Positions 17,001 through 49,748 of a DNA stretch of 64,000 bases are shown in pieces. How positions within the stretch are numbered: the stretch's first letter is position 1; each line of letters starts with the position of its first letter. The stretch lies in contig CM082577.2 in the NCBI GenBank assembly GCA_040954595.2, positions 16,995,903-17,059,902 on the forward strand. The letters run 5' to 3'. This DNA is from Balanoglossus misakiensis (taxonomy: Eukaryota; Animalia; Hemichordata). The position numbers were made by a program, and so were the translations under genes. The notes beneath the pieces are model-generated. The model was given only the letters and a program-made list of their open reading frames with translations. It was not told the DNA's origin and ran no database searches.

Positions 17001-17557
17001 GTACAGCTGTGTCTCTCTTCATTTTATTATGGCAGAATGAATATCTCCATGTATGTGGTAGAACAGCAGCACATCTGTCCTTTCCAAACAATCTTTCCAT
17101 CCACACCACGGCTTCTTTTCGACTTTTTCCATTTTTGTCTCTGAAAATTTCTATTTCCGCTATTACCATATCTGTGACCGTCTCATGTGTATATGTTGCT
17201 TTTCCTTCAAGTACTTCCTTCGTGATTCCTAATTTTTCACACTCCTCACCAACGAATAAAGGTGATCTTCTAGGTTTATAGATACTTTCAATTGGGTTGG
17301 TTAATTTCTGCTTTATCTCTTCATCAGTCTTACACTTCATGAGTTCCCTTTCTACCTTTCTCGTCAAATCAGATATTTTTTGGGGGAGGTTAATTTTTTC
17401 ATCAAGAATCATAAGAGCAGTGGGCAGATGCTCACTGACACTCATTTCTTCCTGGCAAATTATGTACTCTAAAGTTGACACCACACCATATGTTATTTTT
17501 GCTGCATCATCAAAGGAAACTGAAAGTGAGTGGGATCAAGAGAAATGAGAAATCAGG

Positions 17558-24723: not shown

Positions 24724-25220
24724 TTACAAAAGTCTATGAAATTTAACATGGTTGGTATCGTTATAGAAATAAAAGGGAATGTGTTTTTGTCTTAGCTCTT
24801 TGTAAAATGGACAAATCAGCAGAAAATGAAATTCGTCTTCCAGAAGTCTGAGGTTACATAATAGGCAAAGTCTATCTGTTAAATCAATGTTGTGGTGTCT
24901 CCCTACTTCAATACCCAGTTGCATCACGGAGCATCGAAAACGGGCAAAAGCTCTTATGTACTTGGTGTTACAATTTAATGAAAGGTATTTCTCAGGTTCT
25001 AATAAACTCTTGAAACAAGCATAAGTGCGTAGTTTGGGTTTTTGGGTGATACCGTATTTCCACTGTTGTTTACAGATATCCGAAACTCGGGCAGTAAATT
25101 CAGAAATAAATAAATGTCTGTCGCCTACTTCCTGGAACAGCCAGGCATATCCAAAACCATAGGAAAATAAAATGTTTTTCAAAGACGTTGCCCAAGTCTG
25201 TCTGCCCGAGTATCGCACAG
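24724..25220 (-). mobile_element. 3' end of a non-LTR retrotransposon ORF2 (RTE-X/Crack-like)
   Basis: KLRTY..FK..LEPEKYL, RFRCS..LGIEVGR and CCHC motif RLCLLC...EDEFHFLLICPFY. Confidence 0.75.
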
Positions 25221-25429
25221 AATACGAAAGATTGGCTTTCTCTTGTGAACAATTACATGTAATCCCATGGTATCTTTCTTTGTTTGGCGTCATCGTATGC
25301 GAGTGGTTTTCGCAGAGCAGTGAAACGTCGAGCTGTAGCCATATACAAATGATGAACTGTCGTTGATCATTTATAAACTCTCCTAACAAGTCATGTTCGC
25401 CCTCGTAGTCATGCTGCCAGTCGGGAAAA

Positions 25430-25917
25430 TACGGTTGACCTTTTTGTCTCTCCTGAGGAACAACGTTGGATTTGACATAAAAATAACTCTGCGGCAGGTG
25501 TGTGTAAATCATGACGTCTGCTACATGTCGCTTGGCAAACAGCTGGTACCCGTCTTCCGATTTCAACTTGCGAAGGCGTTTACAGTCAAACTGACAAACG
25601 GAGCTCAAATAAACCAAAACGTCAACAAGTTGAGGTAAATTAAAAAGGCTACTACTCCAGTCCTTGCTTGGAATACCCCGAACATCGGGGAGTTCAAAGT
25701 CAACACTGTCGTCTGTTTTGATAGTTCGTCGCCGCTTCATCGATGTCTCCAAATCGTCAGGTTCGAAAATCACCGGCAAGTGTATAGTCGCCGCCTTCTC
25801 GGCTAAACCTATTAACTGTGGCTTATTTTGGTTGCCCACGGCAATTCCCCGTTCCTTTAAGTAAAGTTTCAACTCGTCGACTCTCATTTTTGCAAAAACT
25901 GTCACCATTGTGTACAA
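25430..25917 (-). pseudogene. N-terminal fragment of a transposon accessory ORF with SAP-like start; host of the large MULE insertion
   Basis: MRVDELKLYLKERGI..NKPQLI is SAP-like; KS.DGYQLF and KSNVVPQERQ..PY resemble N-termini of SWIM/YqaJ ORFs of ISL2EU-type elements; candidate end ATAGGGGACTTTCTAG (minus) at ~42946-42961. Confidence 0.45.
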
Positions 25918-26018
25918 GTGAGCAAGAGGTCAGGTCACTTTTATCGTCTGCATGTTAATTCAATGGCGCAACTTTGGGGGTTGTCCCACGCAGACGGTAG
26001 AAGTTGCAACTGGAAAAT

Positions 26019-26195
26019 GACCTGAGGGCAGCGCTGCCCTCAGGGCAGCAGCAAATGGGTACACAACATTCAATGACGTCACAAAAAATAGTCCCGCGTA
26101 AGAACCCATGCGGCGAGTGCCAAGTCCTGGCTGCCAGTGTCCTGCATGCTGCAGATTACACCTCGTGTGGGATCCTACCGTTGTTGAAGGTAAGT
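26019..26195 (+). promoter_or_regulatory. Candidate inward-facing TIR promoter and non-coding first exon (mirrored at 42667-42843)
   Basis: Two AP-2-like sites at 26019-26047, CRE palindrome TGACGTCA at 26074-26081 and a consensus donor AAG|GTAAGT at 26189/26190. Confidence 0.5.
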
Positions 26196-26578
26196 TAAAT
26201 TCCCGAAAGATATGTTGAAAATACATAATATATCAACACGTTCGTACTGACTACATTAGCAGAGTTGCATGGGCAATTAAATTTGCAAACGATGTTATTT
26301 TGTTAGTAATATCTAATGGTTCGCAGCTGACCAGGCCCTCATGATGCATGCACGAGACATATATATTAAACATGACAGAAAAATTACAACTTCTTTAGAA
26401 ATTCGTTGCATAGTGAATATCCGATAATACCTCCATGTGTATATCTATCAATCTGCTCTGATCGTAGCAATATTAAGAGGTTATAACTTATAAACGGCAA
26501 GCTAGGCTATTTGGTTTTGAATATGAGACCTCTGGGGTAAAAATTAGCATATTTGGCAGGCGGGAAATACTAGTAATC

Positions 26579-27806
26579 TGCCCTGAGGGCAACTCAGACA
26601 TTCATTTCATATGTTTATACATGTCATTGCATAGCATCTGCCCTGAGGGCAACACTATATCTGAGCTGCCCTCAGGGCAGACATACATTTCATATGTTTA
26701 TACATGTCATTGCATAGCATCTGCCCTGAGGGCAACACTATATCTGAGCTGCCCTCAGGGCAGACATACATTTCATATGTTTATACATGTCATTGCATAG
26801 CATCTGCCCTGAGGGCAACACTATATCTGAGCTGCCCTCAGGGCAGACATACATTTCATATGTTTGTACATGTCATTGCATAGCATCTGCCCTGAGGGCA
26901 ACACTATATCTGAGCTGCCCTCAGGGCAGACATACATTTCATATGTTTGTACATGTCATTGCATAGCATCTGCCCTGAGGGCAACACTATATCTGAGCTG
27001 CCCTCAGGGCAGACATACATTTCATATGTTTGTACATGTCATTGCATAGCATCTGCCCTGAGGGCAACACTATATCTGAGCTGCCCTCAGGGCAGACATT
27101 CATTTCATATGTTTATACACGTCATTGCATAGCATCTGCCCTGAGGGCAACACTATATCTGAGCTGCCCTCAGGGCAGACATACATTTCATATGTTTATA
27201 CACGTCATTGCATAGCATCTGCCCTGAGGGCAACACTATATCTGAGCTGCCCTCAGGGCAGACATACATTTCATATGTTTGTACATGTCATTGCATAGCA
27301 TCTGCCCTGAGGGCAACACTATATCTGAGCTGCCCTCAGGGCAGACATACATTTCATATGTTTGTACATGTCATTGCATAGCATCTGCCCTGAGGGCAAC
27401 ACTATATCTGAGCTGCCCTCAGGGCAGACATACATTTCATATGTACATGTATGTACATGTCATTGCATAGCATCTGCCCTGAGGGCAACACTATATCTGA
27501 GCTGCCCTCAGGGCAGACATACATTTCATATGTATGTACATGTCATTGCATAGCATCTGCCCTGAGGGCAACACTATATCTGAGCTGCCCTCAGGGCAGA
27601 CATACATTTCATATGTATATATACATGTCATTGCATAGCATCTGCCCTGAGGGCAACACTATATCTGAGCTGCCCTCAGGGCAGACATACATTTCATATG
27701 TATATATACATGTCATTGCATAGCATCTGCCCTGAGGGCAACACTATATCTGAGCTGCCCTCAGGGCAGACATTCATTTCATATGTACGTACATGTCATT
27801 GCATAG
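26579..27806 (+). repeat. 83-bp tandem array, ~14 units, each with two TGCCCTNAGGGCA palindromes
   Basis: Unit TGCCCTGAGGGCA-15 nt-TGCCCTCAGGGCA-42 nt. Confidence 0.95.
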
Positions 27807-28040
27807 TATATAGGCCAGGGTCATCATTTTACCCCTGTATACCCATTAACTCAATTGAGCACTAGTGTGTTTTAAAAACTTCAAGTACAAGTGACAAGAA
27901 CCAAGTTGTTTGTGAACAGTGATGTTTCTCTTCTTTTTAAACCTTATCAGGTACATAAATCTGTCATTGAATACACAATGTTGCTTATATTTTTTTTACT
28001 TATTTTAAAAGCTTTTCCAGATAAAGATATATACAACGAA

Positions 28041-31000
28041 ATGAATACCAAAGGTAAGTTTTTTCGCAGCCTGATGAATATTCCACTTCCTTAGTTGTGC
28101 TGTCAGTGATGCATATCTTGATATCAAAAAGTTGTTAATTTTAAACTTTTTCCAGTGCAAGCTTTTTTTAAAAGCAGTGGTTCAAAAGTATACACGTTCC
28201 TATAGTTATCTAATTCAGATTTGTTGTGATGGAGTATGCGATTTTTATATCATTAATATGAGGTTTATTACACAAATACTGCAAAGTATGCACGAGGACA
28301 TTTGCGCCAGTATCGCCCGATCGAAAAACCGCTCAGCTGAAACAGTGAGCAGCCATCTTTCTTTTTTGTTTACATGCGTTGGAGTGGGGGTGTCTTGAAA
28401 CCGTCCGCACAACAGCGTATTCCTGTACACGCTGAGTTGGGGAGCCTTGAAACTTAAGGCATATTTAACACGCGTTCCGTACGTACCGTTCCGTACGGCT
28501 TTGTTAGATTTTATGACATGGTAATTTACCTCACCCTTGTCGCTTCCATATACACACTCGGTCATTAATTTTTTTAGAAAAAATAGCAGTTTTCCTTTTA
28601 TTTTAGAAACAGTGCAGTGCCTATGGACATGTGAAGGAGGTGATAACACTATTCTTGGCAGTATTGGACCCCATACTATTACAGTGGGAACAATACGAAC
28701 TTTGAAACCTGGAAACTGGCTGGTAGATAACGTAAGTTGTGTTGTAAATTTTAAAAAAAAGATTGTCACTGTTTATTGGCGTAAATTGTCATACAGTTAT
28801 ACTGGTGGTATCACTGCGTGTTTCAGCATGCGCTCAAATGGATGTGGCCCATCATAACACATTACATAAGAATGCTGGTCATGACAATAGAACATTGTCA
28901 CAATTATTACATTGTATTTTTATTTTTTTATAGGCTGTTGATGCATATCTGTTCTTATTGCAAAAAGCCTTGCCACAGTCTTCAGTAAGTCATCACTATA
29001 ATATACTAATGCTCTTCACTGACTGTTTATATCTCTCACCTGGAGCGTGAATCGTCAGTGGTACAAACAAAACAATTGAAATATGCATGGACACATACAT
29101 GTATTCACTAGGCATTTAAGTTTCGTTTTTGTAAATCAACGCTGCTTAATAAATGATCAGACCTGACCTCCAGGTGTCACCATGAAAACAAACACTGCTT
29201 GCTAAACTCTGATGATATTGCCCCATGTGTGAAACTCTGATAACTGAATATTTTTATATAATATGCCCCCCCCTTCTATATATAAATAAATATATACACT
29301 GAATTCTCTCAACAGAATGCTGTTATACTACCCCATCACTTGTGTAGTGAAATAGTAATGGGAAAAAGGAAAACAGTTAAAAGGAAGAAAAAACTTGCGG
29401 TAGGATTTGCAGATCAAGTAGCCTTAGGTTACAAAATAACAAATTTTAGTAGTAGTTAGTAGTACCATCTCTTCTCACCAATAAAGGATATTTCGGGTTT
29501 CGGCAGCCTATTGTCTGTCAAGTGAAATAATTTGCTAAAGCTATTGTTAATTTGCAAAATAGGGTTGAGACACTGCCCATTGAATCATTTATCCTTGCTG
29601 CTAATCTGGGGTAATGGATCCGTAAGTGATTTGCTCAGATGATTTGAAAAGCAAAAAAAGAGCTCAGTTCGTTAAGATTTTCTCAGGTGTTTTCCTGACA
29701 TGCACTAGTATTCATGTACAGATAACTAACCTTCATTTTGAAGATTCTTGGTGAATTTTGATATTTTTTATTTACGATTCTTGTATTTTTAATTGTAGGA
29801 ACAAATAGCAGCAGCAGATAAAGTTGTAGGGGTTATTTACAACCCAGGCCACTGGACTGTCTTTGTAAGTGCGATGAATTTGTATTTACAGACTGGTAGG
29901 GTTCTGATTGAATTTTGTTTGACCAAAGTTTGCTTGGAGACAAATTTTAATTAAGATTTTAATGCAGTAATTATGCAATTGATATACATAAGTCACCTTT
30001 ACCTGTATCAATTCTAATTGAAATGATAACTCGGTTTCATTTGCTCTATCATTTTTACTTTTCATCAAATATGTCAATGTTTAGTGATGCGAAGAGGTTT
30101 TGATACACCCAATTCTTGATAATCACACATAAATCTATTGTATAAATATGTGCTCTGTGACCAAGAGGGTCATTGATGGCATTTTTGTTGTACTAATTGG
30201 TACTTGTTTTATGTACAGTGTGCTGATATGGTCAAGTGCACCTTTTGCCTCTTGGATCCATTACGTCAAGATAGGGACTTTAGACTTGAAATGAACAATT
30301 GGAGGTATGTACAGGAAATCATTTTTAGTCCTCATGGATGCAGTCTGGCGGGGACTTACAGATTGGGTCCTGTGAGTCTGTCTGTCAGCAGCTATTTCTC
30401 AGACACCCATGAACTGATTTTGTTAAAACCTGGCACATAGGCATTTTATTGTAGTGTCCGTGTGCATGTCAATTTATTTCAATTCAATCCAAGAAGGCTG
30501 CCAGGTGGCTATTTTGTTGTGAAATTTGGTTGCCTTTGGGCCGTAAATGAACTATCCCTAAACACATTTTGTTCAAAGTTGGTATAATAACATCTGGTGA
30601 GCACATCGCAAGGTACACTTAAAGCTTTAAAGAAAATATGAAAATGCATGTACTGCAAAAAGAATATGTCACAATTACACTTGATTGGCATAACTTTATT
30701 GTCATCTGTAATGGTTTTAACTTTCTTCAGTGAGTTTCTTGGCTATCTTGGACTGAAGAGGTCATGGAAGGCACTGAAGCTACCACATGACACTCAGCAA
30801 GATGGCTCATCATGTGGTGTGTATGCATTAGAGGTGAGTGTTTTGAATTGTATTTAGCTGCTCTGTTCACACAACAGTAGACTAACCCACTAGTCACTTG
30901 GCACTTTTTTGCCTGAAGATTCTTAACCAATTCTGTTGTTCTCTAATTATCTTACCATTTGTGTGGGGTTTCGTTACCTCTCACCAAGCCATCTCATAGC

Positions 31001-34000
31001 TTATATATTCACTAGTCACTCGCCATAATATCAACACGAAAAACACCTGAAATTTGCTTACTATACCATAGCATTATATAGCCAATACACTGGGAACAAG
31101 TGCCTGTCTTTCTTTTTATCTGTGTTCCATTAAACCCCCAGTAATACTGTCGTTAGGCTGTTTTCCACTAGTATTTTTTTCTGATAAGAACTGCCATGTT
31201 TTGATTATGGAGTCAATACACACTAGGACAAGTTTATTAGATATGTTTTAATGCAAATTATCTTTTTCTTTATGTGAAACCTGTGTTTAATTTTGGCAGC
31301 ACTAAATTGTGTGCACCAGCCTGATAATGAGTATCCATGTTTACAAATTTGTGCCGAGTATTGGGTGGAAATTTGTGACTTTCTTGTCGACAAATGATGT
31401 TTCAGAGAAAACATTCTGATGAATTCATTGAGTGTAGGAAAATTTACATGCAGGCCAGCTTTTAACGATGGAGTGAAAAGGCTATAATTATATTAGAAAT
31501 GTCATGGTATTTCCCTACAGTTTGCTGACCTTTTTCTGCAAGGGAAAAAGGTATTTAGTTTAGACAGACAAGACACACGATTGAAAATAGCAGTAAAGAT
31601 AGTAGCAGAGATCGGTAGGTGAAGCTCAGGGCTAGATAGTCTTTTGTACAATTACCAAGTGCATGTCGTGTTTTTATCTAATCAAAGGGACAATAGCGAT
31701 TTTTAGGTTATTTTTTTCAGTGTTTATGTAAAATTTGAAGGGGAAGTCTGGTCCAGCAGATTTCTACATAATTTTGTTGCTTTGAGATTACTCTTTCAGA
31801 AATAAAAACTTTTCGCATGAATACATCACACATTTTTTTACAATAACAAGGGAAAGTTGGCAGAATTTCCAATATGGTGTTTACTGTAATTTGAATCCTA
31901 GGGAAAACACGCCAAATCTAACTTCTGCCCAACATGATGTGGGTGATACCATTTTCCGATTGGTAAACAACTGCTCTTGATTGTTTATCAACTGCGCTGT
32001 AAAGTACAATCAGTTGCTATGCAAATACACCCAGACTGGCGTACACTGCAGTGACCTCAAAGCCAGCAAATTATGTAGAAATCAGCTGGACCGGACTTCC
32101 CTTTAAATTCACTGGTCAACATGACCAAGCTGATTGCACTTACACAAGCTGTGTTCAAAAGCTGTGTCATTCAAACATCTATTGTCTGAACTTATGATTC
32201 TAGGCTCACACTAATTATGATTTTTCCAGACTTATCTATTCAAATGTGTAGTTGACACAGAATTATAACTAACTCATGCAACTGCGATGTTATATTCACA
32301 ACCTACATTGTAATCTCTACTCTTTCTGTTCATAATCTCAACTACAGCAATTGATTGCACAATATAGTTTTGAAATTTTCATAAGAATCCTTTAAACATT
32401 AATATGTTTACCTTGTGTAAAAAATAGTATGGTTTTACTTTTAAGGCAGGAGACTGCCCAGTGTTATTACATTATTACCTTGTATGTTTTCTGTAGAATT
32501 TACATGCAGGTATAGGTATGGAAGAAACTATACTTCAAATGTTGTAAAATTGTTTCCGTACATACATTCTTCCCAACCCCACCACTTTTCCTTCACTGAG
32601 AATGCATTTATTAGGTTTGTGCATGTGATGCTGCATCTTTTTCCTACAAGTTAATATATGCCTGATCTTCTTTACACGCAGATTCCACCAAAAAAAGATG
32701 TCATGGATGTGGCAAGGGTAGCCCTAGGGTAAGCATCACTGAACTCCTAATGAAGTATCGGTAATAGTTTTGACTTTTTGGACATTGGTTTCATGGCTGC
32801 TGGCCATAGAGTGCATAGTCAGGAGAATCAACATCCAATGTTAAATACAAAAATGAATGCTTCAGAGTGACAAATTGCAGTTTTAGGGACATAATACGAC
32901 ATCTTACTAAATTGGGTCCATTTTATGACTGAGCTCACAAGCCAATGTGGTAAGCCTGCAGTGGCTTTGAATTGGTTAAATATCAAACTGGGGATAAAAT
33001 AATTGAGCATAACAATAAAATGCCATATACAAATATGTGAATGAGATTCATTTGTTATTTACATTTCAGATGTCATGTGTATCATGTGGCAGAAAGTACC
33101 ACACAAAGTGCCATAGGCAATTGAAATGCTTTATTTGTACAGTGACTTGTGGTAAGTAACTGCGATTTTTGGCTATTTGCAATATTTTTGTTCATGTTTC
33201 AAGTCCAGATACAGTTCTACTCGCTAATAGCATGACGAAATGCCCAGTTGTTAGAATATCAATGTAACATGTACCGTATATGGGTAATGGCCATTGTTAT
33301 TGTTGACAAATGAATTCAAGGCCAGACTAGAATTCAATTTTCAACAATAAAATTGCTGATTGTACACATAAAAGCTGTGTTGCAAAGCTAAATACTGGCA
33401 TTTATTCATGCTTTAGGCAGTCAAACAATAAATTGCAGTCCCTACCAGAAACAAAACATAACTTTCTATAGTTTTAGTTCATGTATTCTATAATGTTTCA
33501 ACATGGCTACGGGAGTAGACCAAATAACAATGGTTAAGACTCATGAATTGTGATCAAAAATCAACAAAACTTACAGCTGATGACCCTCAATTAAATGATT
33601 GCTCTCAAGTTCTTTCTCAGATATGATCTTGCATTATTTTTTGCTTTCGTTGATTCTGTCCAGTGGATACAGAAGACCGTTCTGGTGAAGAAGTTGCTGC
33701 CATCCAAAGTGTGGACAATCAAGCTGCCGATGGTAAGATCTTGTTAAATTTGTTTTGCTTATAACAGCGTTAAAACAATGTGGTCAGTAGTTGTACATAC
33801 TAGCTAACTTAAGTTGTGAACTATATCTAAAATTTCACACTTTCAGCCAATTTTTATATCTTTTGCCAATTTTGTTGGACTGTAACCAAGTTCTTTCTCA
33901 GATATGATCTTGCATTATTTTTTGCTTTCGTTGATTCTGTTCAGTGGATACAGAAGACCGTTCTGGTGAAGAAGTTGCTGCCATCCAAAGTGTGGACAAT

Positions 34001-36157
34001 CAAGCTGCCGATGGTAAGATCTTGTTAAATTTGTTTTGCTTATAACAGCATTAAAACAATGTGGTCTGTAGTTGTACATACTAGCTAACTTAAGTTGTGA
34101 ACTATATCTAAAATTTCACACTTTCAGCCAATTTTTACTTGCTGTTTACTTTCTGAAGAATGTTCCCATCAGTTGCATATTGTATCAACAACACTGTCCT
34201 GATCTCTACTGAAGGTGTGAAGAAAAAAAGAAGATGTATGTACGAAGTCCCCTCATTGTTGAAACTAGCGCATAACAAGAAGGCAAAAAGGTATGTAAGG
34301 CTAAAAGAAAAATATTGTTCCTCGTGTGATTTTTTTCGACAGAGGAACAGAAGCGGCAAGCAAAATGTTAATGTTGCTTTTTTGTTAAAAAAAAAAATCA
34401 AAATCAGAAAATGGATAAGCAGCAATCCCAAGGAACAATTCCATTTTTCTTCCTGGCCTAAGAATACTTTCACCACAATGACATGATTGCCAGGCAGGGT
34501 CTCCGTCTTTTATGATGACCTTATTCACCCTTGTTTGGTGGACGGAACATTTTGATATAGGCTTAACAAACTTTTTAAACTTTTCATGAATGCCACCTTA
34601 AAATATTGTCATAGATGATTTGTTTTAATTAAACATCACGCTGTTTCATTATTAATGTTTCAGGTATAATATTTCCGAAGATGAATTACTGAGAAGAACA
34701 GGGTCACCAGAAAAACTGTGCCCATATACAATAAATTCAATGATGAGATGCGCTAAGAGCAACATCAACAATTTAAAAGAAGATCTACGAGCCTGTGCCA
34801 TCCCTATTCATAAACAATCAACATTAACTTCCTCATTCACGAGGTTGTGTGAAGGTACGATTCACCTTGAAATAAAAACATTCAATGCTGCCTGTACCTA
34901 CATATGTTAACTAAGCCTAGATAGACGACTGTAAAACATGGTCTTATTTTAAGGGATGAGTTTGAATAGTATTATAATGTCATGCATTCACACATTTTCT
35001 ACTTAATAACCATTTAATACTTCTAAAAGTATATGTCTGCCCTAACATTATCATGCCGAGAAACGCAACCAAATGCTTGCATGCACTTCACTAAGTATTA
35101 TATCAGGGACCACACATCATGGGAGCTGCATGTATGTGTGTGTGTGTGTGAAAATTACTGCATATTGTCTTGTTGCTGCTGTTTACTTTTTTAGTAATGG
35201 GAACTTTCATTGTTTTCGTAATAGGTGAAGTTGAACACTTGTGTCAGGACTTTAAAAAAATGACTGGATCATTTATACATTTAGAAGAAACAGTTGAAGC
35301 CAACCAGGACAGACCAGAGGATAGCCTCAACAAAATGAATATGTTTAAGTGAGTATTAAAACATAAATAACAAACAATTATTCAATCTGAGATTCAGATG
35401 AAACGAGTGGGTAAAATTGGAAGGGAGAACCATACATTTGCCTCGTGACTTCAGAATTCCCAAGGGTAGAAAGCGCATCCCCACTTATGATCTTCCATTT
35501 TGTAATAATAATAAAAAAATATTTTTAACAGGGAGACCTTGAGTGACCTGTCCAAAAGGCTGATGGGTGCATGCCATGAGGCCGATTTGGTCACGCATGG
35601 CATGACCAGTGCAGTTGTGAGTACCGTTTCACAGTTGCTGTATGATGCTGCAGACTGTGAAAGGAAGGCATGTCTTGAAGTCCTGGTAAGTGTTAAGTTC
35701 ACATGTGATGTATTTAGTTTATTTTGCTGTGCTAAAATCTGTGGAATACTTGTGTCAATTTAGGGGTTAATTAAATTGAGCCATCCCTCTTTATGAGGAG
35801 TAGGATATACATTAGCTGAAGGATATATACAATATATACAGGCTTCGTTGCTCTAGACCTCTATGCCAGATGACACCCTGATCAATGTGTTCCACACCAA
35901 TACAAAATACACCTGTATTATGAGCATTTGAAAGTGTCACTTTTATCCACTGTGCAATAGAGAATAAGCTTGTTTTTGTTGTCTTTTAAGTGCGTATACA
36001 GTGCTTGGTGTAGTCGCAGCAATGCATTTTGGGATAATTGACAAATTACTATTAAAACTGACTAATTATTGTCACACTTTACATTCTGTAGACTTCCAAG
36101 AGAGGGAATGAAAGCGAAGGGTCAGCGGATCTAACTTCGCTGCCAGTAAAACAGTGA
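28041..36157 (+). CDS. Spliced Ulp1/C48 protease - PHD-like finger - AP-2 (TFAP2-like) domain fusion protein, ~513 aa
   Basis: Exons 28041-28053, 28607-28731, 28934-28984, 29316-29399, 29799-29864, 30219-30304, 30731-30833, 31521-31614, 32682-32728, 33070-33151, 33664-33732, 33945-34013, 34173-34290, 34664-34854, 35225-35348, 35532-35685, 36092-36157. All GT-AG and phase-compatible, 1542 nt, no stop. Motifs TLKPGNWLVDN, PGHW, LDPL, QQDGSSCGVY; C4HC3; AP-2-like C-terminus. AATAAA at ~36184 and ~36359. Confidence 0.85.
31739..32102. mobile_element. Kolobok-like MITE in an intron
   Basis: TIR AGGGGAAGTCTGGTCCAGCAGATTTCTACATAATTT versus its diverged reverse complement; flanks TTGA and TTAA. Confidence 0.65.
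33608..34137 (+). repeat. ~281-bp tandem duplication containing a 69-bp exon
   Basis: Identical exons at 33664-33732 and 33945-34013 with near-identical flanking intron. Confidence 0.9.
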
Positions 36158-36926
36158 TACTTGGAGCACCTGTTCAATCAAACAATAAAATATTGATTTT
36201 TTTTTCTATTGACAAAGGAAATGCACATGTTAATGTTCAACAGATTTGTCACATCAGTTGGTCAATTGCTTGTTCCCCCAATGTGTGACATTTGCAGTGC
36301 ATGCATACTATGATTTCCAAGACTTCAATTGTTATTATTCCTCAATATACTTTTCCTCAATAAAAGTAAAGTTTTTAAAAATGGTACAAATCATGGAGAA
36401 TTATGAGTAAAATATTTTATTGTGTACGCGTGAGCTAACAATATCTGCCAGGACAAAGTACTCAAGTAAGGCACACTTCACCAACATTAAAAAATAAAAC
36501 TTGTTTAATGACAAAACAGACTTCTGAAGCCCCAGCAGCTACTTCATACATTTCATGTTTAAACAATGTTCAGTTTTAATGGATACAGTCCAAATTACAC
36601 ACTAAACACTACATGACTAGTTTTATGTTATGGACCATAACAAGTAAAATCTTCAATTTGGTGAAGATAGCTAGGTGAAAACGTAATAGATCAACAATTC
36701 AACTGTTCCTGATATAGTGAACATTATGGAAAGTACATGCAGTTGCAAATGGGTGCTTAAAGTGACAATGCTCATCAGGAGACTAAACTGGCCAGTTTGT
36801 TTTCCTGATGAGTGAGTCCAGTGACTCACGAAACAACGTTGTAGAGATTATACCGCCTATCGTTTCTCCATGCAGCTACCCTTACTTTATATATTTATGT
36901 ATATATAAATACATACATACATGTGC

Positions 36927-39900
36927 TCAACGGTTTTTGCATGGTGTTATACGCCTTTTATTTGTCTTTACTTCATATTCTCTGTCTCCATCATGAGATG
37001 TGCATCTGATAGGTCTTTCAGAATTTCCACAAGATAAGTCATAGCTATGATCAGCTGAGTTTCTCTTTCTTTTAGTCCTATCAATATCTTTCCTATATGG
37101 ATGTAGTGGCTTTATGAGCTTTACCCTAGTTTGAACTTCAAATGTGGAAAAAGCTTCATTGTGAGCCTTTTCCAACAAACTCTTTAATGAAGGGGTATCC
37201 ACAAAATTCTCACTCAAACTCCAATTAAACAAATCCCTGATCATATCTGTTGAAGTCAGCTGGGCCTTGACATCACTACATATTGGTGGTTGCACTTGTT
37301 GACACAGATCGTCTGCTGCAGGTGCAACAAGTTCTGGCTCAGTGTCCTTGTTTCTATAGGCCCATGCTAGCATACACAAACACTTTTCACTGTAACTACT
37401 GGCAATACAGGAACAAGACATATGCTTAAGATCAATAACATTTAAATTGCCATTGTCATACACTGTAAATTGATCAGCCTCACACTTAAATGAGCCCGTT
37501 TGAATTATATTTTTCCCAATTTTGTCCCGCACGTTCAATATTTCAAAGCCAACATTTGATGAATGTAATTTAACAAACAACAGATGTTTACACAATTCTC
37601 CCTTTGAAAATGCCAGACATTCACATGTATACCTAATAAGGTCAACCTTATAGTGAAGGGATGCTGTCCTTTCAGATGGCACATCCCAAATACCATCTGT
37701 ATCTGTCATCTTCACACGCTTGTCATACCCTAATAGAAGCATTCTTTGTACACCCTCCTCGCTGCTTTTCTTCTTTATGGATAGTCTGCCAGCCAGATGC
37801 AACCCCTCAAGGTAACTAAAAGGTAAAACAAAGATTTTTACATACATTTACGAACATTTGGTCACACTCTCTTGGTGTTACATTTACATGATGTCAGTCA
37901 GCAAATTTCAGCAAAGTGGTTTCATATAAAATAAATGGCACTACCTGGAACATGGGGGAAATTTGGAATTGTGTGAAAAAAATGAATAAATATTGATAAA
38001 ATTATCAAATCGAGAAGAATACTAAGAAACAAATAGATGTAGCTTCACATGTGAGGGTCTGTGCATAGACAAATAGAGGGGGAAGACTCTACTGTCTATG
38101 GTCTGTGGTAATACACAACATTTTTGCTTACCTATAGTAGATTTCAACTTTTGTAGAAAGCAAGTTCAAGAGGTCATCAATTCTCCTATTTGCAATTCCC
38201 TTCAAAAACTGATACTTCATAGAATGGAAAAATCTGTAAAACAATGCCACAATTTAAATATCAATTCCATTTCTTCAAGCACATATATAATTATATCAAG
38301 TTCATGAAAACACTAGGTTAGTTTTGATCGAACTTTCAACATTGGACTTGATGTGATAAAAAAAACACATCCCGATCTCTCCTTTAGAATATTCTCTCAA
38401 AGATCTTCCAGAGAATGTTATGCTAGTGAGTAGTTCATAAATATACGCACTTCTGCAGCTAACTCATGAATATTCAAGGTAGATTCTCTGCATTTAGCAT
38501 TCCCAGTGTATACATATGTAAAAGCAGCGCATGATCATGTCAGAGATATATCTACATGGCTAATCAATTAAAAATCACAATTGACGGCCCTCTACTTTTT
38601 CCAAGAAGACTGAAATCATTCTTAACCTTTCTGCAATATTGTTGGTGTCTTGGCCTGCATGATAAATCCTCCGACCAAATTTGCTCCACATATGAGCCAC
38701 AGAAATCCACTGATCTGTTAAGTACTTTGAGACATGCTGACTCCCAATTTCTTTATCAATTGCACCAATAACAGCAAATGATGTCTTCTCAAAGTCTTCT
38801 TTCTGCAGAAAAAAAAGTGATATGGGTTTCTTAATAAGTAAATGTGAAACAAGCACCCTAGTGGCCAATCTTATTAGAACAGAAAAAGGGAGAACAGTGT
38901 CAGTTATAAATGAAAAAAATATGGAAAGTTTTGCTCCAAAATTTAGGCGAAAAAAATATGGCGGTCAAGTAATTCTTGAGCAGGTTTTAGAGAAGAAAAT
39001 TGCTGACGGACAGAAGGATGACAAGAGCCAATCAGCCCATATGATAACGTCCACGTCGCTGACAGCTGAGTGAAAAAATAGACAACTTTACTCATCCGAT
39101 TGGAAAGCTACCGGTATTTGTACTTACCGTAGTACATTCTTTCATTTTATACAAAGCATCAATGACGGTGTTCCTTTTCTCAAGATTTGACTGGCCTGAC
39201 AAACCACCTCCTGAAGTCTTCGTTAACCAACGATGAACTGCCTTTATTAATATAAAATTATATGGTAAAATATTAACAAATACCGTCAATGACAGTGTTG
39301 CTCATAATACCATCTTGATCAGGGGAAAAAAAAGATATTAACTCGATGAGTATTTTAAAACTTGCAGACTGAATAATTACATGAAAAAAACTTGAACATT
39401 GGTGTATGTTATCTGTTCATTTAATAAGTAACGTACTACGGAACTTTTATCTCTAAAACAACTTTAAGTTGTAGTGTCATTTTAGAGTCATATGCAGATC
39501 AGAGTGTATTAAATTCTGCTTGAACAAGTTGGCTAAACATTTCATAAATCTTGCAGTTGTCAGCATATTAAGACTGATAGCTGAAATCCATTGAGACCAA
39601 AAGTATCAGTGAGACAGTGACCAGAGAATTAAATCTAATGACCTACCTGCAATACATGGAACCAGCACAGTAGAATATCTGACTGTGGAAATACACTCTG
39701 TAGAGCTGCTATTTCTGTTGGGTCTTTATCAACCATAATCACTCTTTAAGAAATTAGAATTGTAATTGTTAATGCAACAAAACCCTTACCTTTTGGCATT
39801 TCTGTCACAGGGGTACTTGGATAGAACAGATATAAATTTGCTGAAATTGCATGTGTGTTCATTTGAATACAAGAGATCATAATATCAAAAAGCACAAATA

Positions 39901-41091
39901 CTTTGGAAGGTGCCATCACATAAACCTTACATGACTTCATAACATGGAAAAAGTAGCCTTTGGGTAAAAAAAACACTGTGTTATATGCAGCATAATTGTA
40001 ATAGCTAACAAAGGAAGTGAAGAACATATCCTGTAATACAGCTAACAAAACCCTGAGTATTGTGAAAATAAGAACAAATCAGCAACATTAGTTAATCACT
40101 GACTTTATAACAGCTTCAAAAGTACCATATCTGAATGATTTATTTAGCAGTAAAGAATATACCAATGAATTTACCTTGGACTGATTGTTGTAGCCTCATA
40201 CAATTTAGTGAAACATCGCTCCAGAACTGCTTTGTCTTCTCTGCTGATGATGATGAATGCAATAGGCACACCATGCCCAACACCATTCTTGACAATTACA
40301 GCATAGAATGCATAACCATACGCTGTTATTCCTCTGTATGTAGCATCTATAAATACCATACTTTTTCCGAATTTCAGATATTGGTCTTTCTGAAAGGGAC
40401 TCATGTAAACTATTTCTAATGGTTGGTTGGCAACTTTGGAGAATGGTTGATAGTGGATGATGTTTGCCTGTAGATCACTTTTCAATAGTTTATCTACGCT
40501 GATGGCATCATTTCGATCAAACCTGGTTTCAGCCAAGGCCTTGTTTCGTAGATATTTTACATCTGCTGGTGTGGGGTAGTACTGGCGGTTTTTCATGTCA
40601 AGCTCCCCTCTGTTTTGTGCCCACTGAGAGCACTTAACAATAATTTCACTGGTCTGCAAATTTTGTAAGGTCCAGAGCCTTATTAGTTCAGTCAGCTCAG
40701 GTGATATTTTGCTCACGCGATAGTCATCACTGTTAGACAGATCGTGTCCCACATGGTGACTTCGTAATCTAACAACACACACCTGATGGGTACCCACTTT
40801 GGTGAAACAAAAAGACGCGTATGAGTTGCAGCCATTAGCACGGGTCAGATTTGGAGCTCCAGAGGATTTACCCTTTGCTTTCCCTCCTCTTTCACACCTA
40901 AAATGATAGTTCCCATCTGTTTGCTTCCGCAAACTTGTGTATACCCCAAGACCTCTCTCAGAAAGGGAGGCAAGATGTGCGTTAACAAATTGTTCCTCTG
41001 ATCCACTCTCTACAACATGAAGTGAACGCTGAACTCCAGTTGGCTCCTTGCGTAACTTTGATTCCACAATGGACAGTACTGAAGAATTCAT
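36927..41091 (-). CDS. Spliced MULE transposase with SWIM zinc finger(s), ~764 aa
   Basis: Exons 41091-40175, 39743-39647, 39241-39128, 38802-38627, 38233-38132, 37815-36927; GT-AG and in phase, 2295 nt, no stop. VFIDATY (D), GVPIAF, VIMVDKD..E (D), LLCWFHVLQA (CxxH), DTNNIAER (E), SWIM CECLAFSKGELCKH. Confidence 0.9.
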
Positions 41092-41149
41092 CCTGTAAAA
41101 TATTAAATAATGGAAAAATAGGCATTGCTGAGTAAGTGTATGAAACAAA

Positions 41150-42873
41150 TGTCTGCCCTCAGATGCTATGCAATGACATGTATAAACATATGAAATGAAT
41201 GTCTGCCCTGAGGGCAGCTAAGATATAGTGTTGCCCTCAGGGCAGATGCTATGCAATGACATGTATAAACATATGAAATGAATGTCTGCCCTGAGGGCAG
41301 CTCAGATATAGTGTTGCCCTCAGGGCAGATGCTATGCAATGACATGTATAAACATATGAAATGTATGTCTGCCCTGAGGGCAGCTCAGATATAGTGTTGC
41401 CCTCAGGGCAGATGCTATGCAATGACATGTATAAACATATGAAATGAATGTCTGCCCTGAGGGCAGCTCAGATATAGTGTTGCCCTCAGGGCAGATGCTA
41501 TGCAATGACATGTATAAACATATGAAATGAATGTCTGCCCTGAGGGCAGCTAAGATACATGTATAGTGTTGCCCTCAGGGCAGATACTATGCAATGACAT
41601 GTATAAACATATGAAATGAATGTCTGCCCTGAGGGCAGCTAAGACATAGTGTTGCCCTCAGGGCAGATGCTATGCAATGACATGTATAAACATATGAAAT
41701 GTATGTCTGCCCTGAGGGCAGCTCAGATATAGTGTTGCCCTCAGGGCAGATGCTATGCAATGACATGTATAAACATATGAAATGAATGTCTGCCCTGAGG
41801 GCAGCTCAGATATAGTGTTGCCCTCAGGGCAGATGCTATGCAATGACATGTATAAACATATGAAATGTATGTCTGCCCTGAGGGCAGCTCAGATATAGTG
41901 TTGCCCTCAGGGCAGATGCTATGCAATGACATGTATAAACATATGAAATGTATGTCTGCCCTGAGGGCAGCTCAGATATAGTGTTGCCCTCAGGGCAGAT
42001 ACTATGCAATGACATGTACAAACATATGAAATGTATGTCTGCCCTGAGGGCAGCTCAGATATAGTGTTGCCCTCAGGGCAGATACTATGCAATGACATGT
42101 ACGTACATATGAAATGAATGTCTGCCCTGAGGGCAGCTCAGATGCTATGCAATGACATGTACAAACATATGAAATGTATGTCTGCCCTGAGGGCAGCTCA
42201 GATATAGTGTTGCCCTCAGGGCAGATGCTATGCAATGACATGTATAAACATATGAAATGAATGTCTGAGTTGCCCTCAGGGCAGATTACTAGTATTTCCC
42301 GCCTGCCAAATATGCTAATTTTTACCCCAGAGGTCTCATATTCAAAACCAAATAGCCTAGCTTGCCGTTTATAAGTTATAACCTCTTAATATTGCTACGA
42401 TCAGAGCAGATTGATAGATATACACATGGAGGTATTATCGGATATTCACTATGCAACGAATTTCTAAAGAAGTTGTAATTTTTCTGTCATGTTTAATATA
42501 TATGTCTCGTGCATGCATCATGAGGGCCTGGTCAGCTGCGAACCATTAGATATTACTAACAAAATAACATCGTTTGCAAATTTAATTGCCCATGCAACTC
42601 TGCTAATGTAGTCAGTACGAACGTGTTGATATATTATGTATTTTCAACATATCTTTCGGGAATTTAACTTACCTTCAACAACGGTAGGATCCCACACGAG
42701 GTGTAATCTGCAGCATGCAGGACACTGGCAGCCAGGACTTGGCACTCGCCGCATGGGTTCTTACGCGGGACTATTTTTTGTGACGTCATTGAATGTTGTG
42801 TACCCATTTGCTGCTGCCCTGAGGGCAGCGCTGCCCTCAGGTCATTTTCCAGTTGCAACTTCTACCGTCTGCG
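41150..42873 (-). repeat. Right long TIR with inverted 83-bp array (~13 units, 41150-42287)
   Basis: Reverse complement of the left TIR; array units vary by small indels. Confidence 0.95.
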
Positions 42874-43291
42874 TTGTCCCACCGAACGTCGATCATGAGG
42901 TACACAAGTGCGCCATCTTGTGGCAGTGATGCGAGAACTCCCTAACTAGAAAGTCCCCTATAACTGGTAATAATAATAGTAATAACAGTCTTTATTTCGA
43001 GAACCAGCTCATAAAATATATATACATATATATGCAACATCACACGCACAACATAGACATTAAAAAATACACTGTAATGCATAGCAAATGGGTTGATACG
43101 CAGCAATGAGAGAATTCTTACTTTTACACAACCTGAGAGAAAATTTAGAGCGTAAAGTACGCTGCTTACAATGAAATGTTAAATATTATTATGTACAAAG
43201 TTGTTAGAAATGCTAATCCTTCTATCAATACCAAACAATATCCTAAAACATATGCTATGCTATGTTTCTATTCTGTCACAATCAACATTAC

Positions 43292-43812: not shown

Positions 43813-44922
43813 CTTGTGCAAAGCTATTAAGCAAAAACAACACGCTTAAAATGAAATTCAACTACCATCAAGCCTAACACCAAGGCTGGTGCTGCCGTGG
43901 ATGGCAAGAAATGGGAAAGTAGGTCAAAGGTGAACTGAGGTCACCCGAATTGAGGGCAAAGAATAGGAACCCAAATTTGATTGTGTCCAACAAAAAGCAA
44001 ATGTCAGCCCTATTGGTTAGCCGTAAAGTGGGTGTGCACAAAGTAATTTGTTAAGCAGGTGTCACAGATGATTGGTGAAGTTGGCATTGCATTAAGGTCC
44101 CATTTGTTTTAACACAAAGGCTCTACGTGCTGTGGATGCTGAGATATGGGGAAGTAGGTCAAGGTCTATATCCAACAGAAACCAAACGTTTAGCTCTATT
44201 GGTTAGTGTGCAATTAGGTATGCTCTTAAGAGTTGAGCAGGTGTCACATGTCACAGGTGACCGGGAAATGTTGCTGTTTATTTTGGTATCATGGTGTTCA
44301 CTGGCTGATAGACATGATGCAGTTGATGACCATTGGTGTTGTGTGGAATGATACTGTAAGGCGAGGCAAAACAGGCGAGAGTATGGTTCAAAAACATCCA
44401 CAAGAAAGCATGGAAGTAGCAAAATGTGAAATAATGGAACTTTAAAAATATAGAAAACAATAAGCAAAGTACTCGATCTTGGAAAAGATTTACATGAAAT
44501 AATGGAAATGGGAAATAATGGAACTGGGAAAATGTAGGAAAAAAAATAACAAAGTACGTCTTGATCTTCAAAGACATGAGTTGGAAATTGCGGAAGTAGC
44601 AAAATATAAAGAAATGGAAGTAACAGAGTAGTGGATCTACTAATCCTGCGGAATAGAGAAATTGGTTGGGGAAGACTAATAGGTGCAAGGCAATATTGTG
44701 ATTGGAAGATAGTGGTACTGGAGAGTAATGGTGGTCAGGTAAGTGGACGGAATGAATTAAGTGTGATGTTTATAGCTAGAGGAGTTGTAATGCACTGGAT
44801 TGGGGAGATGGTGATTGGATGAGTGGAAGCACTGAATGGGAATGGACAGTTGTGGAGAGGGTGGAGTAGAATGGTATTGGGGAATGAGTGAGAGGAATGT
44901 GAGATGTCGGGGGCAGTGGAGA

Positions 44923-47900
44923 TTAATGAAGGGGTTGGGGACTAGTGGTGGGTTGGCCTAAGATGGGGAATGGAGGAGGTGGTGATGGTGGAGTGGTTAT
45001 GGGATTGGCAGGTAGCTGAAGAGGAGGGTGGAGATGGAGGGGTCGTGGATTGCATGGTGGAAAGAGAGGTGGGAGGTGGTGGTGGAGTTGAGGTGGTTGT
45101 TGCGGGTATGTGGGCGAGGACCTGGTAGTCCACGACTTTGAAGGTGGTGGGCTGCATATCGAGGAGGAGTTCCTCGGTGATGTCAGTGAGGGCCAGAGGG
45201 TGCATGGGAAACATGTTGGAGAGGATGTGAGAGGGGATGTAATCTGGTTGGTGGATGTGGTAAGGGTGATGTGGGTTGTGACTGAAGGTGTTAACCTGGA
45301 GGTTTTCAGCCTTTTCTGGCAGCTTGGACATTTTACTGTTGTTATTTCTGTGGAGAACAGTGGGAGGGTTTTCCTACAGATGCATATGTATTTCTTGGTG
45401 GACATTGCTGACTCTATCTGTCCTGTGAGTGTTGTGGCAGGGTCTGCGTCATTGGTGATTTTCTCGATGTTGACAGTGGGGGCGATAACGGTGTCTGTGG
45501 TAATCGTGAGAGGTTTTTTTTGTTAAAAAAACGAACGGATAGGTTATTGAAGTGGTAGGTGTTGCCGACGTGAACTTGTTGGATATCTTGATACCAGAGG
45601 GCGAGTTTCATGGTGGCTGTGTGGTCGGCCATGTATATCATTTTTTTTCTGCAGTGTTGTTCCTGATGGCATGGTCTGGTGGGTGCTGTGGTCAGCGAGT
45701 TGTATTGCCTTGGCTGTAGTGTTGACCTGGAATTACATGTGCAAAGGATCGAGAATGATTTCAATCGAAAATGGATCTGAGCAAACAACACAGTTCGATG
45801 TACGTGACTGATGGAGACGAATCAGTACTCATCAAAGTTTGATCACAATAAAGTTTGGACGAAATTACAAATTTCACATCTATGAATAATAAAATATATA
45901 TTACCTCGCTGGCTACCTGTAAAGCCTTGGGATCAGGAAGTATCGAAATGCGAACGAAATTTCGAAAAGTACGAGGCGAGTGACGCGGGTGCACTTTGCT
46001 GTCCCATAGCGAAGTCGAAAGCACGAGGCAAAAAATGCGTAGTGATACGACAATCATAGATGAACTACTTGTGAAACTTTTGTGCGAAAAATGGTTTACT
46101 GATGTGTTCACAATGACCTTCAAAGGTACACATTGTGTCGCGACATCCGTCTCTGCGAAAATTAAGAGTCTACAATATCGAAGCTCGTAATAAAAAAGGG
46201 AACTATTTTTATCGAGTAAGGATTTGAAGCAACAAAACGTTCATGCATATCCCTCAATATCAAAACACGAAAATTACTTTGTTTTTTGTATGGCTTCACT
46301 CCCCCCTAAAATCACATTGATTTTACCTAATCGAAATACTGAAAACAATACTGAATACATCCAAGCTATTTCTCAGCTCTCCCCTGTGTCACTAAAAAAC
46401 AACTTACCATAGCATTTCTCAACTTCAGGATTTTCCCAACTATTAAACTGTTGCCTTATCTACTTTCTTACCTTGTTTCGAGAGGTTGGGATCACCCACA
46501 AGGATGGGTGGATGAGTGAGAAATTGGCCAAAATGATTGAGGGGTATCCAAGGTGTAGTGATTTGCGACGTTGTTACTCTGAAATGTACCAGTGGGATTG
46601 AAGGTGTGTGTGGGTATAGTTAATAAGTGCAACATGTACATTGAGGTGAATGCTGTATTGTATCAGTTGGCAGGGAGGTGGGTGGGTGGGTTTGTGTGTT
46701 GAATAAATATGGTGTATATGATGTGTAATGGGAGTTGTGGGACTGGGGGACAAGTGTGGCTGAAAGTTGCGCAGAAGTGCTGTGTTGCACGGGGAGATGT
46801 TTTGGAGGGTAGTGTATTTGGGCTTCATGTAGTGTTATGTAGGTGGGTCCACTGGATAGTTGGTGTGCAGTTGGGAGAGTTGTTTGTGGATATATTGTTG
46901 ATGGTAGTATTGGGTAATGTTATGTGGTTTTTAGTGAGTGGGCTGTATATGAGCATCTTATTGAGGGCTGAGAGCGCCTGTTTGTTGTGAATTGGAAATG
47001 TCATTAACTGGAAGGCTGGTGAGTTGTGGAAGGAGCTGAAGAATAAGTAGCATATTTGGTAGTGTGTGGGGGGAGATTTGTTGTGATTAAAAGTGGAATG
47101 TGATGAATGAGGAAAAAGTATACTTACGCGTTGGAAAGGGGGTGTATTGTCCATGATTTCTTTCAATGTTAACGTCTTGATTTCGATAGAGTTGCTTGCA
47201 GAGGTGGTGTCGTAACTGAATGGTAGGTGTCTGGCAATGGCAATGTATGATCTGGTATTGAGCTGGATGTCGTTCTTGGTTTGGTCACGGCGGGATTGGA
47301 CCTAGCGCGCGTTTTTTATTTTCACTGGCCTCCTGCAAGGAAATTGGAAGTTTATTACAAAAGTGTTTTAAAGGGTTGTGGTGTGTTTGGTAGTAGGAAG
47401 GTGGTAATTAATAGTATGAGGGGAGTTGAATGCAGAGTTGGGTGTGTTGAAAGTATGTGAAGACAGTGAGTGGTTTTGAACAGAGTGTTGGTAAGGAGTT
47501 TTGGAATCGGTAAGTGTTTATGTGGATACGTTTAGGTTAGTTTTAACATAGGGTGTGTACAAGGGGGATAGACGGTGTGTGTGGCTGAACATTGAGTCAG
47601 TACATATTTAAATGTAGAATTAACATAAATAGTGTCTTGTATCAGACAAAATTAATGAGGAATAGGCAATGACAGGGAGACTTTGTTTTGTGAATAATAC
47701 ATAATTGCTGCAGAGAAGTATGGTAGCCTTTGTGGGAAGGTGCAACATAGTGGCGAGTGGAGGATTGTTTACAATGGAACTTTATGAACAGAATATAGTG
47801 TCACGCAGAGGAAGTTTTTAAAGTAATTCAGTGAAGTGAGAGTCATGTGTTATTGCAGTATGCATTGTTTTTGAAGTACTGAAATTATTGACAGCAGTGG

Positions 47901-49280: not shown

Positions 49281-49748
49281 GGCGCAGAGAGTAGAAATGG
49301 TGCTAGAGCAAATTGCGAGCGATGAGGGAAAAAGTTGCAGATGATGCCTGAGTTGGGAAGAATGTAGGGCCATAAAAGTCGTTCTAGTTGTTGGCAGTTG
49401 GACATGCCGAGATATTGTATATGGAGACGATGATGCGTTAGGTGAAGGTGTTGATGGAAGGATGTATAGGGAAAGGTAGTACACATGAGTTAGCACTTAT
49501 TGATGGGGAAGTCTGTCAATTTTTGCGGAATTTTAGTGCTAGTGATGGTGTTAATGGGAAGTGAACGGTATGGGGTGAGTGTTTGTGCTTATGTTTCAGA
49601 AAATGTTCTTGGATATTTTATTACGATACTCTCTTTTGGAGGATGTAGTGACCCTGAAAAGGGCCGTTTGGAGGTGTCTACCACGTCCATTGGTCCTTGG
49701 CTTGGAATTGAAGGCCTTGAAGTCCGGATTATACTGAATCTGCTGCTT

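Follow-up and report, generated by a model that had tools for sequence, protein, structure and literature searches.

Introduction

Mutator elements of Hydra, lancelet, and plants have been described with a Ulp1-type protease, in some cases together with a PHD finger, and Ginger1 elements likewise carry both (PMC2836005). In Arabidopsis, VANDAL elements, which are Mutator-like elements (MULEs), encode VANC, an accessory protein that binds the tandem motifs of its own element (PMC5735166). Motif clusters within maize Spm have a sequence-specific regulator of their own, the separate protein TnpA (bioRxiv 10.64898/2026.08.24.746577). Here, we describe a Mutator/foldback element in a 64,000-nucleotide stretch of the hemichordate Balanoglossus misakiensis (NCBI GenBank assembly GCA_040954595.2, contig CM082577.2, positions 16,995,903 to 17,059,902 of the forward strand; "the window" below means this whole stretch). 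Besides its transposase, the element encodes a protein predicted to join a Ulp1-type protease and a PHD-like finger to an AP-2-like DNA-binding domain, and its own terminal inverted repeats (TIRs) contain dozens of AP-2-type sites.

The locus shares features with each described system and departs from each. Like the Mutator and Ginger1 elements, it is a DDE transposon in which a Ulp1-type protease precedes a PHD finger. In the present element, however, the predicted protease and finger are encoded apart from the transposase, by a convergent gene of 17 exons, and are fused to an AP-2-like domain, of which the available part of PMC2836005 makes no mention. Like VANDAL elements, it is a MULE that encodes an accessory protein and repeats a short motif in tandem in its noncoding parts (PMC5735166, PMC6446971), but it has long TIRs, and its accessory protein fuses a metazoan transcription-factor-type domain to a protease. 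Moreover, binding and demethylation by VANC are proven, whereas binding by the present fusion is putative. TnpA has a transposase-derived DNA-binding domain and belongs to another superfamily; the domain in our element instead resembles a host developmental factor. Muta1 of Aedes shares a target-site duplication (TSD) of 8–9 base pairs (bp), a terminal motif with subterminal tandem repeats, and a DDE domain with CxxH and W, but measures 3.2 kb, has TIRs of 145 bp, and carries the transposase as its sole gene (PMC5225508). Rehavkus, an animal MULE-related group with a PHD finger and a minisatellite, was considered and rejected as the parent family: its only open reading frame is that of a transposase containing the PHD finger, and its TIRs measure 26–400 bp, while the finger of our element is in the second gene (PMC6446971). 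Finally, likeness to human TFAP2A/B extends to a DNA-binding-domain profile match, the R254-x-A-K-S loop, and a consensus from systematic evolution of ligands by exponential enrichment (SELEX) that equals the TIR palindrome (PMC10450164, PMC5449588). The differences are the presence of protease and finger in place of the N-terminal region, changes at S247 and R255, a dimerization region that is putative, and the preference of the human proteins for three-base spacing, unlike the five-base-spaced sites of the TIRs (PMC10450164).

Results

The element spans positions 25989–42873 of the window (17 kb) and is flanked on both sides by TTGTCCCA, which abuts the tips CGCAG at left and CTGCG at right. 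The window alone would also accommodate a 9- or 10-bp TSD with the ends moved inward; we favor the 8-bp TSD and these coordinates because a related family in metagenome contigs (loci L003 and L009, below) terminates at the same CGCA. The two arms can be aligned across 1740 and 1713 bp at 96% identity, with three mismatches in the outer 740 bp. As in MULEs, the TIRs are long (1.7–1.8 kb, 96–99%) and the TSD (8 bp, or 9–10 with shifted ends) is within the known range of 8–11 bp (PMC6446971); as in type 2 foldback elements, defined as for Muta1, each TIR combines a terminal part with subterminal tandem repeats (PMC5225508). By every feature tested, the element belongs to the MULEs and is built as a type 2 foldback element.

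The transposase gene is open over 764 residues and bears the catalytic and MULE marks D249, D311, CxxH at 332–335, W415, and E434, followed by a SWIM motif at 533–546. CxxH and W are also found in the DDE domain of MULEs such as Muta1 (PMC5225508). Exon 1 alone matched the Pfam families MULE and ZSWIM1-3_RNaseH-like just below their cut-offs (PF10551, E 4.8e-5; the domain is split by an intron), and exon 6 matched SWIM above cut-off. Only two relatives were found among 2069 candidates, one from Ptychodera flava and one from Saccoglossus kowalevskii, both in RefSeq; they are collinear with the transposase over its full length (56% and 54%, respectively) and reach 61–62 bits with PF10551, above the MULE cut-off. 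By themselves, these relatives point to an acorn worm as the likely host. A preliminary description of the stretch had proposed a perfect TSD around 25989..42873, TIRs of about 1.8 kb, more than 50 palindromes in TIR arrays, and an open spliced MULE transposase, all of which agree with what we found here and in the arrays below. The transposon is real and intact and is probably active; within the best explanation, its insertion is recent.

The palindrome TGCCCT(C/G)AGGGCA occurs 57 times in the window, and all 57 copies lie inside the TIRs (30 left, 27 right), mostly spaced by 28 or 55 bp. Each arm has 590 bp of unique sequence on the outside, followed by an array whose unit is 83 bp long. Of the 57 palindromes, 55 are >580 bp from the tip, within the predicted first introns. 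In all 13 letters, the palindrome equals TGCCCTGAGGGCA, the SELEX-derived "correct consensus" of human TFAP2B (PMC5449588, Table 1). Because the palindromes are copies of one 83-bp unit, chance was assessed per unit. Dinucleotide shuffling of the unit, repeated 20,000 times, never produced the 13-mer; the 11-bp core GCCC-N3-GGGC appeared in 16 shuffles, and two AP-2-type sites of any spacing appeared in 30. Among 564 stretches from the remainder of the window, the 13-mer was present in none and the core in one.

The arrays of this type 2 foldback element might instead be ordinary binding sites for the transposase, in which case the AP-2 domain would do something else and the motif match would be coincidental. 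Subterminal repeats are common in MULEs without such cargo (PMC5225508), the AtMu1 transposase binds its TIRs (bioRxiv 2026.08.24.746577), and the transposase of our element has a predicted N-terminal zinc finger of its own (C66, C88, H113, and H116). This explanation, however, needs a chance match of 13 letters in 13 to a TFAP2 consensus in the one element that also encodes an AP-2 domain, with a core as rare in shuffles as that given above, and we hold it to be distinctly unlikely.

Related arrays exist elsewhere. A scan of metagenome contigs for two palindromes 10–40 bp apart returned 11 loci. Six of them (L001, L002, and L004–L007) have the exact 13-mer only as one pair each and were therefore not counted as arrays; L001 itself is a gene of bacterial type. 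The other five contain arrays, with a 25-bp unit in L003, L008, and L009 and a 28-bp unit in L010 and L011, the latter equal to the spacing of the palindrome pair in the window. Spliced-looking genes and satellites suggest that these five are animal-like DNA. Because the loci were chosen by motif, only repetition of the palindrome in diverged units is informative: with both strands counted, a TGCCC half-site is followed, after a gap of three bases, by the completing GGGC in 52 of 72 cases in the 25-bp family and in 34 of 47 in the 28-bp family. The sequence common to L003 and L009 terminates at CGCA, and its tips mirror the layout of the window, with the CGCA end, a palindrome core at base 31, then spacer and array. 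A second AP-2-type site at 48–50 is shared by the window and L003, and TGACGTCA at 75–86 by the window and L009. The tip alignment scores of this family were reached by 0 of 2000 and 1 of 2000 shuffles and, within the loci themselves, by 1 of 4724 stretches (the tip itself) and 10 of 890, which makes L009 the weaker case. The 11 loci look like decayed ends, and a palindrome kept in other repeat families fits a conserved binding site. In L010 (1350–2894) and L011 (310–1760), the neighborhood of the 28-bp palindrome arrays includes ATCATGAT palindromes and a series of short, unrelated satellites; ends were not found there.

The second gene, ORF2, has 17 plus-strand exons with GT-AG borders at 16 of 16 introns, is open over 499 residues, and converges on the transposase gene. 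Pfam scans used single exons. For exon 14, the only Pfam match was TF_AP-2 (PF03299; E 1.2e-4, 22.4 bits against a cut-off of 23.4, over 63 residues), with E about 2e-3 after correction for 14 queries; exons 15 and 16 gave no Pfam match. A search of 1.8 billion representative proteins returned three matches, one of them a real relative: P0001, a 213-residue Ptychodera protein that shares the finger, the repeated acidic linker, and the first half of the AP-2-like domain (ORF2 residues 208–379, 49% over 212 columns). For P0001 too, the only Pfam match was TF_AP-2 (E 0.03), and the two matches cover adjoining profile positions, 8–79. The other two, P0002 and P0003, were dropped as repetitive proteins without AP-2 motifs. 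The P0001 gene and the Ptychodera transposase relative are on different contigs. The acorn-worm loci concerned are those of XP_070551136.1, XP_070533937.1, and XP_077864593.1, in the Ptychodera and Saccoglossus assemblies. No relative was found in viral and prokaryote contigs.

To place individual residues, we used an ungapped map anchored on A-K-S, with TFAP2 numbering from PMC10450164. It retains R236, R254, A256, K257, and S258, with K226 changed to R and L249 to I, and the key DNA-contact residues R254, K257, and K226 correspond to R350, K353, and R322 of the element protein. In TFAP2, the R254A and K257A mutations nearly abolish binding (PMC10450164). Profile and residues together support a resemblance of the predicted C-terminal domain to the AP-2 DNA-binding domain.

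Upstream of this domain, exons 1–8 of ORF2 are a manual model, covered by no relative or transcript. They encode, in the order His-Asp-Cys and with an oxyanion Gln, a Ulp1-type set of residues (H109-W, D126, and Q164-x-D-G-x-x-C170-G) that corresponds to the catalytic motif of Ulp1/SENP (C48) proteases. Peptidase_C48 was not matched in Pfam by the six of eight protease exons scanned (22–41 residues each), and a PDB sequence search with exons 7 and 2 returned nothing. By its motifs, the protease is predicted to act on SUMO; its specificity could alternatively be for NEDD8 or ubiquitin. Exons 9 and 10 encode a compact C4HC3 finger whose eight ligands are all retained in P0001; neither the scanned ORF2 exons nor P0001 gave a PHD match in Pfam. 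The linker between finger and AP-2-like domain is repeated, as it is in P0001.

The preliminary description had read ORF2 as a convergent, open 17-exon gene for a Ulp1-PHD-AP-2 protein. The open frame and the AP-2 likeness stand, while the Ulp1 and PHD parts drew no profile match. It had also suggested comparing the protein with TF_AP-2 and Peptidase_C48 by profile and by AlphaFold, and looking for relatives in which the AP-2 domain accompanies TIR arrays. TF_AP-2 was the sole Pfam match of exon 14 (below cut-off), Peptidase_C48 was not matched, and the folds were uninformative. Both proteins have acorn-worm relatives, and co-occurrence of domain and arrays was seen in one element only. The self-targeting module that the description had proposed, a captured transcription-factor domain docking a deSUMOylase-like enzyme on the element's ends, is taken up below as an inference.

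Sequencing data bear on the gene models. Three runs (X1–X3) of one sample contain the DNA, none of them recorded as RNA. The X3 contigs stop exactly at predicted exon borders. Record 22 of this run joins 37815 to 38132 over a 316-bp GT-AG intron (transposase exons 5/6), and in records 20, 22, and 23 the unlisted remainders match the depth in neighboring-exon bins exactly (0.27, 1.41, and 0.37). X3 supports the transposase junctions 3/4, 4/5, and 5/6 and the ORF2 junction 16/17, one directly and three by this arithmetic. Most simply, X3 is an RNA run; the spliced joins may also come from an intronless DNA copy. Its coverage leaves out the Ulp1 exons, the AP-2 exons, and transposase exons 1–2, where a blank is no evidence, and no transcript for the predicted TIR first exon was seen. 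The listed interior contigs of X1 have 0–1 differences over up to 3.4 kb at depths of 98–128, whereas flank contigs are at 52–59 and the TIR is at 240. This hints at about two near-identical copies of the element, depth not being a copy number. An empty-site allele is only hinted at by X2 record 12, which stops at 25989 and then continues.

Taken together, an AP-2-like domain and 57 AP-2 sites in the ends of the same element make self-docking likely, and we propose the following mechanism. Both genes would be transcribed inward from identical TIR promoters; with the predicted donor and its mirror (Table 1), each array would lie within intron 1 of its gene. The Ulp1-PHD-AP-2 fusion would dimerize and bind the arrays in the element's own ends, where the docked protease would strip SUMO from silencing or transcription factors nearby. 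Removal of SUMO would keep the two presumed end promoters active, by activation or anti-silencing. Since the arrays are nearly CpG-free, methylation would not block them. Because piRNA (PIWI-interacting RNA)-guided silencing in Drosophila requires SUMO (bioRxiv 533091) and SUMOylation lowers transactivation by TFAP2A and TFAP2C (PMC3219183), SUMO removal would favor expression. As with VANC, an accessory protein and tandem motif arrays occur in one element; relief of silencing would follow by analogy. This is the most economical reading, linking three oddities: the AP-2-like domain, the dozens of AP-2 sites, and a protease that needs an address. We consider it quite probable that the fusion dimerizes and binds the arrays; that the whole chain holds, from binding through deSUMOylation to sustained expression of the element, we rate somewhat better than even.

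Several observations weigh against this mechanism. The TF_AP-2 score is 1 bit below the curated cut-off. S247, one of three base readers, is changed to Y343, R255 is changed to C, and S222 could not be placed (K318 in the ungapped map, an uncertain placement), so that neither S222 nor S247 is recovered. A PDB sequence search with exons 14 and 15 returned nothing, alignment to solved structures gave only chance rows, and the AlphaFold models were weak (predicted local distance difference test, pLDDT, 61 for exon 14 and 38 for P0001). With these weak models, Foldseek returned no match at E 0.001 (best VIA, Z 3.0), and ESM Atlas gave no usable match for the domain. The Ulp1 assignment is predicted from motifs, without profile support. 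A full-length ORF2 relative was not found among 20 candidates, 7993 scored sequences, and the 1.8 billion representatives, and tblastn matched none of the 11 metagenome loci to the transposase or ORF2 protein. In calorimetry, human TFAP2A/B are weak on a five-base-spaced 13-mer of different center (PMC10450164). Transposase or host AP-2 could also be the array binder: subterminal tandem repeats are common in MULEs, occurring in 10 of 12 long-TIR Aedes families (PMC5225508), and a Mutator transposase is capable of binding and activating its TIRs by itself (bioRxiv 2026.08.24.746577).

If the structural negatives are taken at face value, the C-terminal domain might not be homologous to AP-2 at all and its Pfam match might be due to chance; host TFAP2 proteins were also not among the three matches of the 1.8-billion-protein search. 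Yet the strength of the match over 63 residues, the same sole family in P0001, the adjoining profile positions, and the matched key residues make this highly improbable.

The spacing of the sites bears on a different possibility, that the arrays are landing pads for host TFAP2, which would give germline or embryonic expression, and that the element protein partners with, deSUMOylates, or competes with it. It is a host-type factor whose consensus the motif matches, while the element's own domain has changed one base reader; SUMOylation lowers TFAP2A/TFAP2C transactivation (PMC3219183); and other repeats in which no AP-2 gene was seen have arrays too. Human TFAP2, however, strongly prefers three-base spacing (dissociation constant about 18 nM; PMC10450164), of which the TIRs have no site, and an element relying on the host factor alone need not keep its own copy open. 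The variant cCC-N3-GGg is bound at about 340 nM (PMC10450164), and the TIR site, set in the three-base register, would read as this variant. We think a host-factor landing pad unlikely, by a hair more so than the cofactor role considered next.

In that role, the fusion would serve transposition itself: AP-2 dimers would coat and pair the ends, and the protease would target transposase or repair proteins rather than silencing. Two sites near the tip, at 31 and 48 bp, are suitably placed, and related elements have the first of them at the identical position; TnpA of maize Spm is an accessory factor required for transposition (bioRxiv 2026.08.24.746577), MURB is required for integration (PMC6446971), and Ulp1 has been suggested to act in transposition or repair (PMC2836005). 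On the other side, the great majority of sites, lying far from the tip in predicted first introns, suit transcriptional control, and the PHD-like finger points to chromatin. We regard a transposition cofactor as unlikely, and self-docking that sustains expression is the reading we carry forward.

Table 1. Positions of features of the element and of neighboring mobile remains (window coordinates)
Feature	Position	Strand	Remarks
Left TSD TTGTCCCA	25981..25988	.	8 bp; 9–10 bp if ends read one base inward
Left TIR, ~1.8 kb	25989..27806	+	CGCA tip, then unique 590 bp, then array
Pair of AP-2-type sites near tip	26018..26047	.	Cores 31 and 48 bp from end, first with a mismatch; mirrored in right TIR
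CRE (cAMP response element)-type palindrome TGACGTCA	26074..26081	.	In CpG-rich unique TIR part; presumed promoter
Predicted donor of noncoding first exon	26189..26195	+	Mirror at 42673 on minus strand
Left array of 83-bp units	about 26576..27806	.	14.5 copies at 26595-27806; two palindromes per unit, 29 palindromes; 3 CpG in 1.2 kb
ORF2 exons 1–8 (28041-28053, 28607-28731, 28934-28984, 29316-29399, 29799-29864, 30219-30304, 30731-30833, 31521-31614), predicted Ulp1/C48-type protease	28041..31614	+	Motif level
ORF2 exons 9–10 (32682-32728, 33070-33151), compact C4HC3 (PHD-like) finger	32682..33151	+	
281-bp tandem duplication, source of the identical acidic linker exons 11 and 12 (33664-33732, 33945-34013)	33606..34137	+	
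ORF2 exons 13–14 (34215-34290, 34664-34854), AP-2-like DNA-binding domain	34215..34854	+	
ORF2 exons 15–17 (35225-35348, 35532-35685, 36092-36157 including stop), position of AP-2 dimerization region	35225..36157	+	
MULE transposase, 6 exons (41091-40175, 39743-39647, 39241-39128, 38802-38627, 38233-38132, 37815-36927)	36927..41091	-	764 residues, open frame
Right TIR, ~1.7 kb	41160..42873	-	
Right array of 83-bp units	about 41160..42290	.	Tandem units at 41160-42267; 26 palindromes; 1 CpG
Right TSD TTGTCCCA	42874..42881	.	
DDE_Tnp_4 remains	3331-3741; 49994-50461		
DUF3504/integrase, Crypton type	4893-5624		
piggyBac-type DDE_Tnp_1_7	5573-6496		
Open endonuclease-reverse transcriptase frame, 992 residues	58408-61383		

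Some further observations concern the element and its surroundings. Over the AP-2 exons and introns (34788–35970), X1 and X2 contain diverged contigs with indels, a hint of older relatives or deleted copies. Short high-copy repeats occupy 28294–28500, 31738–32090, 33276–33350, and 36790–36840 in the introns and spacer of the element; very high depth and opposite-strand joints suggest that these are miniature inverted-repeat elements. Far outside the element, 69 bp at 4406–4474 are 80% like TIR positions 499–567, a part of the TIR that is very deep in the runs.

On either side (1–25900 and 43000–64000), the window holds a nest of other mobile remains (Table 1). A 401-residue stop-to-stop frame on the minus strand (24727–25929) ends 60 bp left of the insertion and has no Pfam match. 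The runs contain diverged versions of this stretch, so the element inserted next to or within another repeat. Three adjacent long minus-strand frames at 13581–17535 (465, 474, and 367 residues; the one scanned had no Pfam match) look like one decayed transposon gene. A strong strand skew (GC skew 0.3–0.5) runs across 6 kb at 44000–50000, with only low-complexity frames, and a 146-bp unit is repeated in tandem at 9113–9863 (5.2 copies, 94% matches).

Discussion

Ulp1/PHD add-ons in Mutator elements and self-targeting regulators of plant transposons (VANC and TnpA) are known already; what is new here is the AP-2-like domain. We found no AP-2-encoding transposon in the literature searched, judged by titles and the opening of abstracts (supplements, Repbase, Dfam, and subscription journals lay outside the search), and the term AP-2 has no occurrence in PMC6446971, PMC6431247, PMC10027918, or bioRxiv 2026.08.24.746577. 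Mentions of AP-2 in the Crypton paper were set aside, as they concern KCTD1 and not a transposon-encoded AP-2.

In the literature that we found, counter-silencing by sequence-specific accessory proteins of transposons has been shown only in plants. If the proposed mechanism is true, the element would allow one to ask directly why Ulp1 domains are carried by so many transposons, because the array marks the expected site of protease action. The element looks intact and transcribed and is therefore amenable to laboratory testing. The usual direction of exchange, from transposon domain to host factor, would be reversed. More broadly, and tentatively, since we put it a little short of even, an animal Mutator lineage of acorn worms, and probably of other animals, may have taken an AP-2 domain, joined it to a SUMO protease, and assembled arrays of its sites in the element's ends. 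Such a lineage would counter silencing in a VANC-like manner and would scatter AP-2 clusters, a route by which dense clusters of AP-2 sites may spread in genomes.

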